Source of the DNA: Oscillospiraceae bacterium
Lineage (GTDB): Bacteria > Bacillota > Clostridia > Oscillospirales > CAG-272
Length of the DNA: 64,000 nt
NCBI GenBank assembly: GCA_015064125.1
Contig: SVSV01000001.1
Location: 3,357 to 67,356, forward strand
Direction: 5' to 3'
The number at the start of each line of letters is the position of its first letter. Positions within the stretch are counted from its first letter, which is position 1. The translations under genes and the position numbers were made by a program. This document shows positions 3,297 to 41,327 of this stretch, one piece after another. Below the pieces are notes generated by a model. The model was not told where the DNA came from. It did not search any database and worked only from the letters and a program-made list of their open reading frames with translations.

Positions 3297-3439
3297 TTTC
3301 GCCTTTACAAAAGCGCTTTTTGAATCCGTTTTTAGGATTTACGGCTGTCTAAAACGCCAAAATCAGCATAAAAACCGCCAAAACTATATATGTTTTGGTA
3401 CTAAATTGCAAAAAAATTGATATTTTTTACAAAAACCTC

Positions 3440-34789: not shown

Positions 34790-34892
34790 TTTAAAAAACC
34801 TCCGTGAGGAAAAATTTTGTGAAAACAGATTTTCTCTTGGAATATCGCTTGTCATACAAACGGTATTGCAGCAAAAAATCTATTAAGCCGCA

Positions 34893-35296
34893 CAAAGCTA
34901 CCCAAGGCGGTGCAGATGTGGATGCGGAGTGCCACTGCGTGGGGCGACGGTGTAGTAACACTCTGTGCCCTGTAGCAAGGGATACTATACTCCAAATATA
35001 CCCAAGGCGGTGCAGATTTCTCCAAATATGCCCAAGGCGGTGCAGATTTGGATGCAGAGCGCCGCTGCGTGGGGCGACGGTGTAGTAAACACTCTGAGCC
35101 CTGTAGCAAGGGATACTATACTCCAAATATACCCAAGGCGGTGCAGATTTCTCCAAATATGCCCAAGGCGGTGCAGATTTCTCCAAATATGCCCAAGGCG
35201 GTGCAGATTTGGATGCAGAGCGCCGCTGCGTGGGGCGACGGTGTAGTAACTACTCCGAGCCCCACGCAGGGGATGCTATGCGCCAAATATGCCCGT
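34893..35296. repeat. nested direct-repeat array in the ilvC-ilvD spacer (30-bp unit A x5 plus 2 partial; ~70-bp unit B x3)
   Basis: Unit A is CTCCAAATAT[A/G]CCCAAGGCGGTGCAGATTT at 34990, 35020, 35121, 35151 and 35181. Unit B is at 34920-34989, 35050-35120 and 35211-35280. The order is A'B / AAB / AAAB / A''. Confidence 0.95.
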
Positions 35297-35297
35297 C

Positions 35298-36866: not shown

Positions 36867-38576
36867 TCAGCTGAGCAAGAAATCGGTAATATGAGAGCCG
36901 CCGCCAACCATCGGACGTACCTTTTCGTCCATATCGATGGCACAGTCAATGACGTATCCGTGGCCGCACTGCATCGCTTCAGCGATCGCCGCCTCAAGCT
37001 CGGTGACGTTTGAAACGTGCGCACCGCCAAGCCCGTATGCCTTGGCAAGCGCAACAAAGTCGGGACCGCGGTCGGTAAGCGTGGTTTGGGAATAGCGCTT
37101 GTCGTAGATCAGCGTCTGCCACTGACGCACCATGCCAAGCGTCTTGTTATTAAACACAAAAGTGATGATCGGCACACCGTAATTCTGCACCGTGGCAAGC
37201 TCATTGCAGTTCATGCGGAAGCTGCCGTCGCCCGTAATGTGAATGACGGTCTTGTCGGGGTTGCCGACCTTTGCGCCGATGGCGGCACCCAGACCAAAGC
37301 CCATCGTGCCAAAGCCGCCCGAGGTCAGGAGCTGACCGGGATAATCAAAGCGGAAGTGCTGGATCGACCACATCTGATGCTGCCCCACGTCAGTTGCCAC
37401 CACGGTATTCTGCGGCAGAAGCTTTGCAATCGAGGAAAGTATCTGCTTGGGCGTCAGCGTATCGGTCGCATCATCGTACTCGGTCTCAGTCTTAAAGGAG
37501 AATACGTATTTCTTCCAGTCGCTGTGATCGGCAGGCGAGATCATCTCATTGAGGCGTGCCAGCACACGCTTCGCATCGCCCACGATGTGATGGTCGGTAT
37601 GTACGTTTTTGTTGATCTCGGCACGGTCGATATCGATGTGAACGATCTTTGCCTGCTTGGCAAAGGTCTTGGGGGCAAGCGCCACACGGTCGGAGAAGCG
37701 GCAGCCAACGGAGATCAGCAGGTCACACGCATCGCACGCCATATTGGAGGCCTGCGTGCCGTGCATACCGATCATACCGGTTGCCAGGGGATTGCGGCCG
37801 CAAATACCGCCCGCACCCATCAGAGTGATCGCCACGGGAGAATCGATCTTTTCAGCGAACTCCAGAAACTCCTTGTGTGCTCTGCCTCGCACCACACCGC
37901 CGCCGCAGATCAGCAGGGGCTTTTTGGAGGCGTGGATCATATCCACCAGCGTTTGCAGGTCCTTTTCATCAACCTCGGGGGCCTTGAAGTCCTGCGAGGA
38001 GCGACGCATCATAGCGCCAAGCTTGCCCTCAGCATAATGCTGCTCGGTGGGAAGGGGTGTAAACTCGGTCTTCTCCCCCGTCGCATTTTTAAGAATATCA
38101 ATAAATACAGGCCCGGGACGACCGCTCTTGGCGATCGCGAAGGCGGCACGCACGGTATCGGCCAGCTTTTCCACCGAATCCACGATATAATTGCATTTGG
38201 TGATGGGCATGGTAATACCCGTAATATCGACCTCCTGGAAGGAATCCTTACCGATCAGGTTGCGCGCCACGTTGCAGGAAATAAACACAACAGGAGAAGA
38301 ATCCATGTGTGCCGTTGCAATGCCGGTGGTGAGGTTGGTGGCACCGGGGCCCGAGGTCGCAAAGCATACGCCTACCTTGCCCGTGCTGCGTGCGTAGCCG
38401 TCAGCTGCGTGTGCGGCGCCCTGCTCGTGTGCGGTCAATACGTGATTGATCCTGTCGCCGTAGCGATACAGCGCGTCATACACGTTGAGGATCGTGCCGC
38501 CCGGATAACCGAATACGGTATCGACCTCCTGCTCAAGCAGGCATTCCATCAAAATTTGTGCGCCTGTTAATTTCAT
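36867..38576 (-). CDS. ilvB: acetolactate synthase large subunit
   Basis: ATG 38576 (MKLTGAQ...) with AGGAGG 8 nt upstream. ThDP enzyme motifs GYPGGTIL and GTMGFGLGAAIGA...GDGSF. Confidence 0.95.
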   Translation of the reverse strand: MKLTGAQILMECLLEQEVDTVFGYPGGTILNVYDALYRYGDRINHVLTAHEQGAAHAADGYARSTGKVGVCFATSGPGATNLTTGIATAHMDSSPVVFISCNVARNLIGKDSFQEVDITGITMPITKCNYIVDSVEKLADTVRAAFAIAKSGRPGPVFIDILKNATGEKTEFTPLPTEQHYAEGKLGAMMRRSSQDFKAPEVDEKDLQTLVDMIHASKKPLLICGGGVVRGRAHKEFLEFAEKIDSPVAITLMGAGGICGRNPLATGMIGMHGTQASNMACDACDLLISVGCRFSDRVALAPKTFAKQAKIVHIDIDRAEINKNVHTDHHIVGDAKRVLARLNEMISPADHSDWKKYVFSFKTETEYDDATDTLTPKQILSSIAKLLPQNTVVATDVGQHQMWSIQHFRFDYPGQLLTSGGFGTMGFGLGAAIGAKVGNPDKTVIHITGDGSFRMNCNELATVQNYGVPIITFVFNNKTLGMVRQWQTLIYDKRYSQTTLTDRGPDFVALAKAYGLGGAHVSNVTELEAAIAEAMQCGHGYVIDCAIDMDEKVRPMVGGGSHITDFLLS

Positions 38577-38595
38577 CGTCAAACCCTCCTATGGG

Positions 38596-38638
38596 AAAAT
38601 AAAAACCCTACGTTCTGAAAGTTCAGACCGTAAGGTTT
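38596..38638 (-). terminator. intrinsic terminator (attenuator) immediately upstream of the ilvB RBS
   Basis: RNA sequence is AAACCUUACGGUCUGA-ACUU-UCAGAACGUAGGGUUU, a 16-position stem with 1 mismatch and 1 G-U pair, followed by UUAUUUU. It ends 5 nt before AGGAGG. Confidence 0.8.
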
Positions 38639-38702
38639 ACATTCAAAATCTTTCACAACCATTTTACAAGCAGGATATTTTTATCTTCTTACTCCTGTCC
38701 TG

Positions 38703-38834
38703 TCAAACAGCTGAGGTTTTGTAAAACCGGGCGCAACTTTCAGCACTATTCTGGTCAGCCACAACGACTAGCGAAATTAGACCTAGAATAGCGCCCACAA
38801 TGGCTATATTGATCACACAAGCGATAGTAGCCAT
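38703..38834 (-). CDS. candidate ilv-leu leader peptide (43 aa, Ile/Val/Leu-rich)
   Basis: GAGGTG lies 6 nt before ATG 38834. The peptide is MATIACVINIAIVGAILGLISLVVVADQNSAESCARFYKTSAV. It sits between a consensus promoter and the terminator. All Leu codons are CUA and one Ile codon is AUA. Confidence 0.5.
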   Translation of the reverse strand: MATIACVINIAIVGAILGLISLVVVADQNSAESCARFYKTSAV

Positions 38835-38867
38835 GCTGCACCTCACGTTTAATAATAATATGTTGCT

Positions 38868-38896
38868 ATTATAACACGGTGCCCATCTGCTGTCAA
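38868..38896 (-). promoter_or_regulatory. consensus sigma-A promoter of the ilv-leu operon
   Basis: On the minus strand: TTGACA (38896-38891), 17 nt, TATAAT (38873-38868). Confidence 0.8.
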
Positions 38897-39233
38897 TACC
38901 CAAATTTTGCTTTTCGGCACAAAAAACAACAAAAAATTCATTTGCCCCATAAAACTGTGCATTCTGCACATATTTCGGCTTTTTTACTAAAAAAGCCGCC
39001 GAAGCTGCGTATATTCATCCGTTTTTTATACAAGATACCCCGCGCCGCCTCGTGCGCGCGCACAGCGCGCGTTTAAGAATTAGGGAGCGTATCCTCAAAA
39101 GCCGCTTCCAAACGTCGGTATGACAAACACCGCGATTGCATAATTACACCGTGTACACACTGCCGTGCCAGGATGCTTTTTCGGCTTTTTTGGCCACATC
39201 CCGAAAAAAGTTTAAAAAGATTGCAAAAAGCCC

Positions 39234-39262
39234 TTGACTTTAGCGCGGTGAAGTGTTAAAAT
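39234..39262 (+). promoter_or_regulatory. promoter of the yerC-like/his operon
   Basis: TTGACT (39234-39239), 17 nt, TAAAAT (39257-39262). Confidence 0.65.
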
Positions 39263-39295
39263 GTGTAGGTATTTCAACAACAGGAGAGCTTTGGT

Positions 39296-39595
39296 ATGTT
39301 TGATACGAAAAACGAATCCTTAAGTCGCTTGTTTGAGGCAATTTTGAAGCTTGAAACCAAAGAGGAGTGCGAGCGATTTTTTGAGGACATCTGCACCATT
39401 AAGGAATTGCGTGAGATCGCCCAGCGTCTTGACGTAGCGCTTTACCTTTCTCAGGGCAAAAATTATCAGGTCATCTCTACCCTCACAGGCGCCAGCACGG
39501 CTACCATCAGCCGCGTTAACAAGTGCCTGAATTACGGCAGCGGCGGCTACGCACAAATGCTGCAAAGGCTGGCTGATGCGGAGGACAAGCAATGA
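39296..39595 (+). CDS. YerC/YecD-family TrpR-related DNA-binding protein (probable histidine regulator, HisR-type)
   Basis: 99 aa. ..EECERFFEDICTIKELREIAQRLDVALYL..GKNYQVISTLTGASTATISRVNKCLNYG matches the Trp-repressor-like YerC family. Its stop codon overlaps the hisZ ATG as ATGA. Confidence 0.7.
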   Translation: MFDTKNESLSRLFEAILKLETKEECERFFEDICTIKELREIAQRLDVALYLSQGKNYQVISTLTGASTATISRVNKCLNYGSGGYAQMLQRLADAEDKQ

Positions 39596-40698
39596 ACACG
39601 AACAGAATTTTACAGGGTGACGAGCGTGCAGCGCTCGCCCTGCGTGCGCTCTATCACAGCTATGGCTACACGCAATATAAAATGAACAAATTTGAGGAAT
39701 ACGACCTGTACGTGCAAAACAAGGACTTCCTGATCTCGGATAACGTCATTACCTTTACCGACACCAGTGGCAAGCTTCTGGCCCTGAAGCCCGACGTTAC
39801 GCTTTCCATTGTGAAAAACGCAGGCCGCCGCGGCAGCCTTGAAAAAGTATATTATCAGGAAAACGTCTATCGCGTATCGGGGCGCACCCACGCCTTCCGC
39901 GAGATCATGCAGGTGGGGCTTGAATGTATCGGAGCGGTAGACCCCTATTGCATTTTTGAGGTGCTGACGCTGGCCGCCAAGAGCCTTGCCACCATTTCAG
40001 AAAACGCCGTGCTTGACGTATCGCACCTTGGCATTGTTTCGGCCGTGCTCGATGCCCTCGCGGTATCTGCCGACACGCGCCGCGCGCTGCTCACCGCCAT
40101 CGGCGAGAAGAACCTGCACGAGGCAACCGCCATTGCAACAGCCGCTGGTGTTGCATCCGAAAAAATCGCGGTGCTGCAAACGCTCATCTCCTCCTACGGC
40201 GCTCCACACGACGTGCTGCCCACGCTGCTGCCCGTGCTACAGGACATCGTTCCCGAGCAGACCCTTCATGCCTTTGCCGAGCTTCTTGCAGCCCTTGAAG
40301 CCTCCCCCGTTGGCGCACTTGTGCGCGTTGACCTTTCCGTGGTGGGCGACATCGGCTACTACAACGGCATCGTGTTTAAGGGCTTTATTGCGGGCGTGCC
40401 CGAGGGGCTGCTGTCGGGTGGCGAATACAATGGCCTCATGCGCAAAATGGGCAAAAAGGAAAACGCCATCGGCTTTGCCGTTTACCTTGACGCGCTGGAG
40501 CGCTTTATGGAAGATAAAGAAAGCTATGACGTAGATACCGTTTTGCTGTATGACGGGTATGTAGCTCCTGCGGTGCTGGCCGAAAAAATGGCTGCACTGG
40601 TCGCTGAGGGCAAGACCGCCCTCGCGCTGCACGAGATGCCCGAGCGCCTGCGCTACCGTACACTGCTGCGCTTGACTGACGGGGAGGTTCAAAAATGA
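39592..40698 (+). CDS. hisZ: ATP phosphoribosyltransferase regulatory subunit
   Basis: HisRS-like catalytic core without an anticodon-binding domain, placed directly before a short-form hisG. Confidence 0.85.
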   Translation: MNTNRILQGDERAALALRALYHSYGYTQYKMNKFEEYDLYVQNKDFLISDNVITFTDTSGKLLALKPDVTLSIVKNAGRRGSLEKVYYQENVYRVSGRTHAFREIMQVGLECIGAVDPYCIFEVLTLAAKSLATISENAVLDVSHLGIVSAVLDALAVSADTRRALLTAIGEKNLHEATAIATAAGVASEKIAVLQTLISSYGAPHDVLPTLLPVLQDIVPEQTLHAFAELLAALEASPVGALVRVDLSVVGDIGYYNGIVFKGFIAGVPEGLLSGGEYNGLMRKMGKKENAIGFAVYLDALERFMEDKESYDVDTVLLYDGYVAPAVLAEKMAALVAEGKTALALHEMPERLRYRTLLRLTDGEVQK

Positions 40699-41327
40699 AG
40701 GAAATGTTAAACGTTGCCCTGCCCAAGGGGCGCCTTGGTGAGAAGGTCTACGCCATGTTTGAAAAAGCAGGCTTTCCCTGCCCCGCCATTCACGAGGATA
40801 ACCGCAAGCTGATTTTTGAAAATGAGGAGCTGGGGCTCCGCTTTTTCTGGGCAAAGCCCTCGGACGTACCGATCTACGTCGAGCGCGGCGTGGCCGACAT
40901 TGGTGTGGCGGGCAAGGATATTTTACTTGAATATCAGCCCGACGTATACGAGCTCCTTGACCTCAAGCTTGGCAAGTGCCGCATGGCGGTTGCTGCCCCC
41001 AAGGATTTTCACGACGACCCGCGCCGTACCCTGCGTGTTGCCACCAAATTCTCACGCATTGCGAAAAATTATTACGAGGGACTCGGACGTGATATTGATA
41101 TCATCCATTTGAACGGCAGCATTGAGATCGCCCCCATCATCGGCCTTTCCGACGTCATTGTAGATATTGTAGAAACAGGCACGACCCTGCGCGAAAACGA
41201 CCTTGAGGTCTTTGCTACCGTAGTACCCATCAGCGCCCGTCTGATCGCCAACAAGGCAGGCTTTAAATTCAAGAATACAACCGTTGAACAGATCGTGCGC
41301 GGCATCGCCGCGCAGGTGGAGAATTGA
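40695..41327 (+). CDS. hisG: ATP phosphoribosyltransferase (short form)
   Basis: 210 aa: LNVALPKGRL, DIGVAGKD, DIVETGTTLREN. There is an ATGA overlap with hisZ. Confidence 0.95.
   Translation: MKEMLNVALPKGRLGEKVYAMFEKAGFPCPAIHEDNRKLIFENEELGLRFFWAKPSDVPIYVERGVADIGVAGKDILLEYQPDVYELLDLKLGKCRMAVAAPKDFHDDPRRTLRVATKFSRIAKNYYEGLGRDIDIIHLNGSIEIAPIIGLSDVIVDIVETGTTLRENDLEVFATVVPISARLIANKAGFKFKNTTVEQIVRGIAAQVEN

Follow-up and report, generated by a model that had tools for sequence, protein, structure and literature searches.

A probable ribosome-mediated attenuator preceding the ilv-leu operon of an Oscillospiraceae bacterium and of its relatives

How does an Oscillospiraceae bacterium (GenBank assembly GCA_015064125.1) adjust the transcription of its genes for branched-chain amino acid (BCAA) synthesis? 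This question is raised by the 285-nucleotide (nt) leader located upstream of ilvB on contig SVSV01000001.1. The stretch of DNA that was analysed, referred to as the window, is 64 kb long (positions 3,357 to 67,356 of the contig), and the coordinates of all leader features are those of its minus strand, unless stated otherwise. At such a position a T-box would be expected, and the original prediction, made by reading the letters alone, had proposed a leader-peptide attenuator in its place. Our analysis indicates that the leader is very probably a ribosome-mediated (leader-peptide) transcription attenuator of an 11-gene ilv-leu operon, set by the charging of tRNA-Leu, tRNA-Ile and tRNA-Val. This answer is built on the anatomy of the leader, its codon bias, and its conservation and covariation in related bacteria, all of which were observed directly.

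The first part of the leader contains a promoter and a short upstream open reading frame (uORF):

38896-38868, minus strand: sigma-70-type promoter (TTGACA 38896-38891, 17-nt spacer, TGn-TATAAT 38873-38868), 12/12 match, with a TG extended -10
38844-38839, minus strand: Shine-Dalgarno (SD) sequence GAGGTG, 4 nt 5' of ATG 38834
38834-38703, minus strand: leader ORF MATIACVINIAIVGAILGLISLVVVADQNSAESCARFYKTSAV, 43 codons plus UGA (stop 38705-38703)
38825-38760, minus strand: regulatory codon run, codons 4-25, with 14 Ile/Leu/Val codons

The promoter was the top-scoring site in a consensus scan of 4 kb, and beyond the two hexamers noted in the original prediction it carries the extended -10 element. 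Transcription probably starts near 38861. No separate ilvB promoter of comparable quality was found by consensus scan, and TTGACA with an extended -10 was present at the equivalent position in every relative that was read. The SD sequence, the start codon, the length of the uORF and the number of Ile/Leu/Val codons were all as originally described. Within the uORF the putative control codons are clustered (AUA at codon 10, AUU-CUA at 16-17, CUA-AUU at 19-20, CUA-GUC-GUU-GUG at 22-25). Leu is encoded by CUA all three times and Ile once by AUA, and in 12 genes of the window (4,444 codons) CUA represents 2/359 Leu codons and AUA 7/317 Ile codons, a bias stronger than the one previously claimed; the chance of finding three CUA codons in the leader is about 2e-7. 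Two of them fall in the loop between regions 1 and 2 described below, where they are free of pairing constraint.

The whole leader folds far better than its dinucleotide shuffles (z = -6.15). The RNA elements that could make up an attenuator are the following:

38797-38780, minus strand: region 1, UGGGCGCUAUUCUAGGUC, codons 13-18; 5' strand of the anti-antiterminator helix 1:2 in the minimum free energy (MFE) fold
38756-38740, minus strand: region 2, 5' part, GACCAGAAUAGUGCUGA, codons 27-32; 3' strand of helix 1:2
38745-38720, minus strand: antiterminator strand (region 2, 3' part), complementary to 38641-38615
38743-38735 with 38623-38615, minus strand: antiterminator helix a, CUGAAAGUU with its exact complement AACUUUCAG, nine pairs
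38732-38730 with 38629-38627, minus strand: antiterminator helix b, GCC pairing with GGU
38728-38720 with 38641-38634, minus strand: antiterminator helix c, GGUUUUACA with UGUAAACC at the base of the terminator 5' arm
38737-38730 with 38842-38835, minus strand: second lock, GUUGCGCC with the SD/start region GGUGCAGC, 8 base pairs (bp), present in every naked-RNA fold
38713-38656, minus strand: spacer hairpin, 19 bp, -18.9 kcal/mol, with the leader stop codon in the 5' arm
38644-38596, minus strand: intrinsic terminator (regions 3 and 4), -20.8 kcal/mol

Helix 1:2, with a duplex energy of -23.6 kcal/mol, lies inside the uORF, and the control codons sit in and between its strands; the 5' part of region 2 overlaps the first bases of the antiterminator strand. 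Within the terminator, the latter finds its complement at the base of the 5' arm and in the loop with the four 3'-arm bases next to it; against the 5' half of the terminator its energy is about -18 kcal/mol. The terminator itself consists of a 5' arm (38644-38623), the loop ACUU (38622-38619) and a 3' arm (38618-38597), with a stem core at 38638-38603. Its U-tract UUUUUAUUUU (38605-38596) is followed, after 5 nt, by the ilvB SD sequence AGGAGG (38590-38585) and by the ilvB ATG at 38576. The terminator, the distance between its U-tract and AGGAGG, and the exact complementarity behind helix a had all been foreseen.

Two further elements accompany these helices. GUUGCGCC shares bases with helix b and with the 3' end of helix a, and its pairing with the SD region, as modelled, would hide the SD sequence late in transcription and lock the antiterminator strand. 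The spacer hairpin is enclosed by the antiterminator; relatives show, by eye, a hairpin of another sequence in spacer columns that cannot be aligned, and probably this variable hairpin only brings the two antiterminator strands together. The original prediction had assigned to this part of the leader a second switch, in which GUAAAAUGGUU (38667-38657) would change between GGUUUUAC and AACCUUAC as its partner. This pairing set was rejected, as the segment sits in the spacer hairpin, which is not conserved; GGUUUUACA instead pairs directly with UGUAAACC.

We infer that the uORF is translated and that the leader responds to BCAA supply, in the following way. When BCAA-tRNAs are scarce, the leading ribosome would stall at AUU-CUA, CUA-AUU or CUA-GUC-GUU-GUG (codons 16-25), in or just past region 1. 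The stall would block helix 1:2 and free the antiterminator strand (38745-38720), which would capture AAACC, GGU and AACUUUCAG as region 3 is transcribed, before the remaining 3' arm emerges; nucleation of the terminator would then fail and RNA polymerase would continue into ilvB. When BCAA-tRNAs are plentiful, the ribosome would pass region 2 and reach the stop codon, the antiterminator strand would be either covered by the ribosome or locked again by region 1 and the SD region, and the terminator would form. In untranslated RNA, helix 1:2 and the helix between the SD region and its complement would both form and termination would be maximal.

If this is how the leader works, its parts should be recognisable in related bacteria. 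A search of 5.8 billion proteins gave only three clusters homologous to the leader peptide, 86-88% identical, whose contigs show the same his/ilv neighbourhood and in which the ORF is called as a gene in metagenomes. Since these clusters are too similar to reveal covariation, relatives were sought via IlvB. Their contigs were fetched by an IlvB search followed by clustering, with representatives at 93, 87, 86, 80, 79, 79, 79 and 78% IlvB identity; in a scan of GTDB genomes by IlvB, the best relatives were at most 73% identical among the matches listed. Loci are indicated by L and a number. Seven of the eight representatives have the same leader design, and the eighth, L104, carries a T-box. 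About 15 relatives, mostly metagenome-assembled genomes (MAGs) of Oscillospiraceae/Ruminococcaceae type with IlvB 73-93% identical, show five parts before ilvB: the promoter, an Ile/Leu/Val-rich uORF, helix 1:2 inside the uORF, the antiterminator strand CUGAAAGUU... in a fixed frame, and a terminator that can pair with that strand through its loop and flanks.

The same architecture is carried by L081-L094, whose leader peptides are 86-88% identical to that of the window and which share the his/ilv neighbourhood, and by L095 (IlvB identity 93%), L096 (87%), L098 (86%), L099 (80%) and L101, L102 and L103 (79%). Further carriers are L001 and L003 (73%), L004 (72%), L110 and, more distantly, L048 and L038, the last being a Christensenella MAG with an IlvB identity of 48%. 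In L001 and L004, which are GTDB genomes at 72-73%, the antiterminator/terminator part is shared and no region 1 is recognisable. A covariance model of the segment from region 1 to region 2 (model R1) misses these two; it matches exactly one copy in the window, all training relatives and L048, L003 and L038, which by eye share the layout while differing in sequence. When metagenome contigs were scanned for the pattern AATAGTGCTRAAAGTTGYGCC, 7 loci emerged, namely one family member (L110) and 6 chance matches in unrelated coding DNA. In the near-identical contigs L105, L106, L107 and L109 the 21-nt motif of the antiterminator strand falls within a long, unrelated coding frame that has no ilvB in its vicinity, showing that the motif alone is not diagnostic.

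The uORFs of the relatives always have an SD sequence and a start codon, and GAGGTGC is kept in L081, L091, L095, L096, L098 and L110. In 12 leaders with IlvB identities of 72-100%, the uORF has 29-49 codons, 23-41% of which specify Ile, Leu or Val, and the antiterminator strand stands in the same codon phase in 12/12. Gaps in the leader alignment are of 3, 9, 12 and 15 nt, all multiples of three, so that the frame is kept, and in family members the last Ile/Leu/Val codon lies 7-25 nt 5' of the antiterminator strand. In ten non-redundant leaders, CUA accounts for 18/42 Leu codons (43%), as compared to 4/391 (1%) in the adjacent ilvB. The peptide sequence drifts, apart from its composition (compare MHFAYVLNSIILVSIILVLVVKYTKDNAKSYAQSSNT with MATIACVINIAIVGAILGLISLVVVADQNSAESCARFYKTSAV), and its C-terminal tail is variable. 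Among close relatives, synonymous sites of the core are frozen although amino-acid changes occur, which points to a constraint at the RNA level rather than at the protein level.

These data bear on the possibility, already named in the original prediction, that the ORF encodes a small hydrophobic membrane peptide with its own function, in which case the hairpin would terminate it in the ordinary way, or partially and constitutively. The hydrophobicity of residues 3-25 would suffice for a membrane helix, and gene callers annotate the ORF in metagenomes. A functional peptide of this kind is, however, difficult to reconcile with a sequence that is poorly conserved save for its composition, with a length that varies between 29 and 49 residues, and with synonymous sites that are frozen while residues change. 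No Pfam or NCBIfam match, leader-peptide families included, was found beyond hydrophobic noise for four peptides of the family (E <= 10), and the three clusters mentioned above are all that the protein search returned. Moreover, the ORF always lies between a strong promoter and an ilvB without a comparable promoter of its own, compensatory changes accompany the pairing of its coding sequence with the terminator, and the rarest Leu codon is one that an expressed protein would be expected to avoid. We therefore consider an independent membrane peptide very improbable.

Covariation was then considered for each of the helices of the proposed attenuator. RNAalifold, run unguided on ten full-length leaders, returned a consensus made of the core of helix 1:2 and the terminator. 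The counts for terminator and antiterminator come from a spliced MAFFT alignment (A1), in which helix a is represented by 13 sequences. The terminator is 88.8% paired in this alignment, with 7 pairs changed on both sides. For the antiterminator (three helices, 18 pairs), 91% of the cells are paired, as compared to 18-52% in controls with the partner shifted by 1-3 columns; both sides have changed in eight pairs, and the observed covariation score was reached by 0/500 shuffles. Helix c is under-counted here, with L099, L101 and L103 being one column off. In 12/15 leaders the antiterminator duplex has an energy of -15 to -21 kcal/mol, with z = -2.4 to -3.8 with respect to shuffles.

Helix a is 100% paired in 13/13 sequences, with compensatory changes at two pairs (GC in 8 and AU in 5 sequences; UA in 12 and CG in 1). 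Its core occurs as CUGAAAG/CUUUCAG, CUAAAAG/CUUUUAG and CCAAAAG/CUUUUGG, within the versions CUGAAAGUU/AACUUUCAG, CUAAAAGUU/AACUUUUAG (five sequences) and CCAAAAGUU/AACUUUUGG (L102). One C/U position has two possible partners, a G/A in helix a and a G/A at the upper end of the terminator 5' arm, and in the alignment all three change together, a pattern characteristic of competition between two partners. The G that has changed in L102 has no partner in the terminator, and therefore the antiterminator alone explains the change from U-A to C-G. Equivalents of helix a were found at the same places in L003 (AUGCUAAAUGUU/AAUGUUUAGCAU) and in L048 (GCUAUGA/UCAUAGC). As regards helix 1:2, 90% of the cells are paired in an unfitted alignment and 88.6% in a model-fitted one, as compared to at most 55% in slid controls. 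When the three distant members are included there are six changes on both sides, above shuffles, in an alignment that is model-fitted and leans to structure. The pairing of GUUGCGCC with the SD region is kept by eye in L095 and L098 and is not obvious in L099-L103. The leaders L099 (~930-950), L101, L102 and L103 have in addition a small stem-loop between promoter and uORF (e.g. AACCCGAAATTTTGGGTT and GGAGACGCAGCAGGTCTCC), which is absent from the window and may be a 5' stabiliser. The uORF, its Ile/Leu/Val codons and the pairings are thus kept in related ilvB upstream regions, and the pairings covary, as the original interpretation would have it.

Could the arrangement be fortuitous, that is, a GC-poor, structured 5' untranslated region with a chance ORF and an unregulated terminator-like hairpin? 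Short ORFs are indeed abundant, and in consensus scans terminator-like hairpins occur in the region near the chance rate. Chance does not, however, explain the folding z-score of the leader, nor that the whole arrangement is kept, with covariation, down to IlvB identities of about 48-73%. It also leaves unexplained that short ORFs preceded by an SD sequence, with at least 9 of 12 consecutive codons for Ile, Leu or Val, occur in 8/76 other ilvB upstream regions, as compared to 0/76 on the opposite strand and 0.05 expected from shuffles. Fortuitous resemblance is already contradicted by these comparative sequence data, and we give it next to no credence.

Is the leader a member of a known RNA family? 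Across the window, no match to an Rfam family attained the gathering score, and with the limit relaxed to E <= 10 the region 38400-39300 gave three noise matches only (a snoRNA, the PutA thermometer and an S. pyogenes sRNA). The T-box family RF00230, which is recognised by its Stem I carrying the specifier loop and by the conserved sequence …GGUGGUACCGCG… of the antiterminator bulge, was absent at the gathering score and at E <= 10, and the same search scored relatives at 95-133 bits. Therefore, neither a T-box, nor a ppGpp riboswitch (ykkC subtype 2a), nor any other riboswitch model fits the leader, in agreement with the earlier remark that no T-box core is visible in it. Five of the six features that define the mechanistic class of leader-peptide attenuators are present, namely an SD-preceded uORF, an enrichment in codons for the end products, a terminator, a mutually exclusive antiterminator and helix 1:2, and the sixth, read-through that requires translation of the leader and increases on starvation for the cognate amino acids, is predicted. 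The element very probably belongs to this class; it does not belong to any catalogued sequence family.

A switch that works independently of translation might nevertheless use the same RNA alternatives, with a small molecule, a protein or an uncharged tRNA acting on the 21-nt segment GAAUAGUGCUGAAAGUUGYGCC and the ORF being incidental. This segment is the most conserved part of the leader, more so than the peptide, ppGpp riboswitches or T-boxes control ilvB in other Firmicutes (PMC10272879), and masking one ribosome does not alone give the antiterminator thermodynamically. Yet the conservation of the segment needs no other cause, because every base of it serves one or the other of the two alternative pairings; the peptide motif N-S-A-E/K-S-C-A is conserved because the underlying bases are used in these pairings. 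No Rfam aptamer was found at E <= 10 and no UGGN or T-box core is present. Besides, an incidental ORF would not keep its SD sequence, start codon, frame (12/12), indels in multiples of three and richness in Ile, Leu and Val, and the 40-fold excess of the rare CUA codon persists across leaders with diverged peptides. A translation-independent switch is therefore unlikely in our opinion.

The expectation of a T-box at this position was itself justified, since relatives with a T-box there do exist. RF00230 takes the place of the leader peptide before ilvB in L104 (886-1128), L006 (2726-2944) and L039 (2741-2959), and a T-box precedes ilvB also in L008, L033, L029, L036, L044, L060 and L062. According to the Rfam-model alignment, the specifier is GUC (Val) in L006 and L039 and is ambiguous in L104. 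The IlvB of L104 is 78% identical to that of the window, about as close as those of the leader-peptide carriers L099-L103. Replacement of a T-box by a leader peptide in Firmicutes was noted in 2010 (PMC2965389), and the T-boxes found at the leader position in relatives are an instance of this known pattern of sensor swapping.

The Ile/Leu/Val-rich uORFs found in 8/76 upstream regions belong to L003, L037, L038, L040, L055 (Brachyspira pilosicoli), L066 (Oribacterium sinus), L073 and L075, and sit 165-305 nt upstream of ilvB (examples are MYTALALANIIIISIISIIVLVLVNGVDKVLPKVDG and MMFFAFAAIIAILVLVLVLRVLIVAGNNSCVCQSIVI). The uORF of L048, MFSLFASTLYAVIGTIALVLVVVRVSGDSAMSRA, lies 356 nt upstream, just beyond the 350 nt that were scanned. 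The comparison with the leader family of the window covered L003, L038 and L048; the remaining loci may represent separate leader families. Together with T-boxes in about a dozen of the other ilvB upstream regions, the eight uORFs suggest that ribosome-sensed ilvB leaders are common in Clostridia and interchange with T-boxes. A different situation was seen in L002 (~830-1018), a Butyricicoccus MAG with an IlvB identity of 73%. Here a TTGACA-17-TATTAT promoter (11/12) is followed by a leader of ~100 nt before ilvB, which has a terminator (TCTGCGATCTGG...CAGAGCGCAGATTTTTTT) and neither an Ile/Leu/Val-rich uORF nor a T-box; ilvB may be controlled in another way in this organism.

The energetics of the proposed attenuator were analysed by modelling its states. 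When the RNA is naked or a ribosome sits at the stop codon, the folds at all transcript lengths contain helix 1:2 (11 bp) and the pairing of the SD region with 38737-38730, which keep the antiterminator strand engaged, together with the terminator once its 3' arm has emerged. With a ribosome stalled in the Ile/Leu/Val codons and all 5' RNA occluded, the antiterminator (9 + 5 bp) is the MFE structure while the accessible 3' end lies at 38612-38609. The antiterminator showed up solely under full occlusion of the RNA 5' of the stall, and over a brief interval of transcription.

Several observations weigh against ribosome-mediated attenuation and have to be set beside those in its favour. In the stalled state the terminator is favoured from 38606 on, and at full length the terminator state reaches -49.1 kcal/mol, as compared to -41.7 kcal/mol for the antiterminator state. 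When a single ribosome footprint of 30 nt is masked, the antiterminator is never the MFE structure and the freed strand pairs with other upstream RNA, so that thermodynamics alone predicts no read-through. With a deficit of ~7 kcal/mol against the terminator state, the antiterminator would therefore have to act kinetically, as a trap that closes ahead of the emergence of the 3' arm; classical attenuators such as the trp leader are, in the accepted view, traps of this kind. A second difficulty is the position of the stop codon. Measured from where helix a ends, it varies in the family between 1 nt on the 5' side and 44 nt on the 3' side; the uORF of L003 stops even sooner, where region 2 begins. 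In the clade of the window the stop codon lies 29-44 nt past helix a; a terminating ribosome leaves helix a uncovered there and re-locking by region 1 must therefore be assumed. In addition, the covariation of helix 1:2 is modest and does not exceed shuffles in the unfitted alignment, where there is little variation, and the close kinship of many family members means that cell counts overstate the number of independent events. Finally, the hydrophobic 22-residue core of the peptide would equally resemble a membrane helix. Taken as a whole, the original interpretation stands as far as anatomy, conservation and covariation are concerned, its sensing of BCAA-tRNA is inferred, and its second pairing set, which is not conserved, falls.

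How does such a leader compare with known systems? Enterobacterial leu, ilvGMEDA and ilvBN leaders encode BCAA-rich peptides of 28-32 amino acids (PMC6123439). The leader of the window resembles leuL, ilvL and ivbL in having a short ORF rich in residues of the pathway between the promoter and the first gene, in the mutually exclusive helices 1:2, 2:3 and 3:4, with 3:4 as the terminator, and in comparable peptide size and BCAA counts. It also has in common with the Salmonella leu leader the use of the rare CUA as control codon (Carter et al. 1986, as cited in PMC1183508). On the other hand, no similarity to the enterobacterial leaders was found at E <= 10 in Rfam, Pfam (IlvB_leader, IlvGEDA_leader, Leu_leader) or NCBIfam. 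The uORF of the window is longer (43 codons, 29-49 in the family), with Ile, Leu and Val dispersed in a hydrophobic run and not arranged in one-codon tandems, and the pairing of its antiterminator strand extends to the terminator loop and to the bases that open the 3' arm. It belongs to a Gram-positive anaerobe of the Oscillospiraceae-type Clostridia, in which one leader serves a single 11-gene ilv-leu-ridA operon.

In Firmicutes, genetic evidence exists for the ilvD leader of S. aureus, with a Leu/Ile-rich attenuator peptide of 26 amino acids (PMC5794164, PMC6123439), and for the Rli60 ilv attenuator of Listeria monocytogenes (PMC5864092, PMC6123439). Ilv leader peptides have also been predicted in Lactococcus and Streptococcus, as cited in PMC5794164. 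The S. aureus and Listeria leaders share with that of the window a BCAA-rich leader peptide, a terminator/antiterminator pair and the lack of a Bacillus-type T-box before ilv-leu genes; they differ in belonging to Bacilli, in their unrelated sequence, in preceding ilvD and not ilvB, and in acting with CodY. For ilvB, the Corynebacterium ilvB-II motif, a uORF attenuator of ilvBNC, and the ilvB-OMG and Leptospira ilvB motifs have been described, and uORF attenuation has been argued to be common (PMC10272879, PMC11109978). These are likewise lineage-specific, with a start and a stop codon in frame, BCAA codons, a terminator and an antiterminator in or next to the uORF. They belong to other sequence and structure families and to other lineages (Actinobacteria, marine Gammaproteobacteria and others, Leptospira); the Corynebacterium uORFs are shorter (about 15-17 codons), and the family of the window has an extra anti-antiterminator helix within the uORF. 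The T-box of the Bacillus subtilis ilv-leu operon (RF00230) has the same genomic position and the same terminator/antiterminator output; it senses uncharged tRNA through its specifier loop and T-box sequence, whereas the sensor in the window would be the translating ribosome.

For some Clostridia, attenuators with a His leader have been predicted (PMC9413887). Searches of full-text papers turned up no ilv leader peptide described for Clostridia or Oscillospiraceae, and no database model matches. The original claim of novelty was overstated, as this kind of attenuation is established in Firmicutes (S. aureus, PMC5794164; Listeria, PMC5864092).

The genes that the leader would control are listed below.

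38590-26068, minus strand: putatively regulated operon of 11 genes (ilvB, ilvN, ilvC, ilvD, leuA, leuC, leuD, leuB, ilvE, ilvA, ridA)
38576-36867, minus strand: ilvB, NCBIfam equivalog
27647-26454, minus strand: ilvA, NCBIfam equivalog
26442-26068, minus strand: ridA, Pfam Ribonuc_L-PSP, directly 3' of ilvA

The ten consecutive genes from ilvB to ilvA are NCBIfam equivalogs above cut-off, and the genes beyond ridA are on the opposite strand. RidA clears the reactive enamine/imine produced by IlvA (threonine ammonia-lyase), and the placement of ridA next to ilvA is consistent with this role. The operon had previously been counted as 12 genes; 11 can be verified, and the extra ORF lies in a spacer made of tandem repeats. 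This ilvC-ilvD spacer (34856-35297, ~440 nt) contains a 131-nt unit in ~2.1 copies (34901-35180) and a nested 30-nt unit, AAATCTGCACCGCCTTGGGCATATTTGGAG in the minus-strand reading, in 3 copies at 35121-35210 and 2 copies at 34990-35049. The repeats yield spurious ORFs, such as 34791-35186, which probably is the extra gene of the earlier count; the probable start of ilvD is the ATG that follows GGAGG near 34792, rather than 34855.

On the plus strand, divergently from the operon, lie a gene for a 99-residue TrpR-family protein (39296-39595; Pfam Trp_repressor, 4.6e-28), directly followed by hisZ (39592-40698) and hisG (40695-41327). This order matches the arrangement of the HisR (YerC) histidine repressor of Firmicutes (PMC9413887), and the synteny of the TrpR-family and his genes with ilv is kept in L081-L097. 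A search for the CodY box AATTTTCWGAAAATT with up to 3 mismatches gave no match near the promoter, and the lone match in the window is at chance level.

In the genomes concerned, the current annotation of this region is nothing, or a 43-residue 'hypothetical protein'. The mechanism proposed here is classical and leaves the theory of attenuation unchanged; what is new is an uncatalogued example in Clostridia. It provides a testable model of BCAA regulation for abundant, mostly uncultured Clostridia of gut and rumen, and a seed alignment for an RNA family absent from Rfam. The replacement between T-box and leader peptide in organisms at ~78-80% IlvB identity would help to study how a sensor is exchanged while the terminator output is kept, and the use of CUA represents an independent case of rare-codon control that bears on the theory of selective isoacceptor charging. 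We tentatively suggest, as a possibility that falls somewhat short of an even chance, that attenuators of this kind form an uncatalogued and fairly widespread group in Clostridia (Oscillospiraceae/Ruminococcaceae, Christensenellales and others), repeatedly swapped with T-boxes and owing their sensitivity mainly to a single minor isoacceptor, tRNA-Leu(UAG), and the conserved rare CUA codons; the leader of the window may be the first member of this group to be recognised. If true, this would amount to a convergent re-invention of the strategy of the Salmonella leu leader in anaerobic bacteria of gut and rumen.

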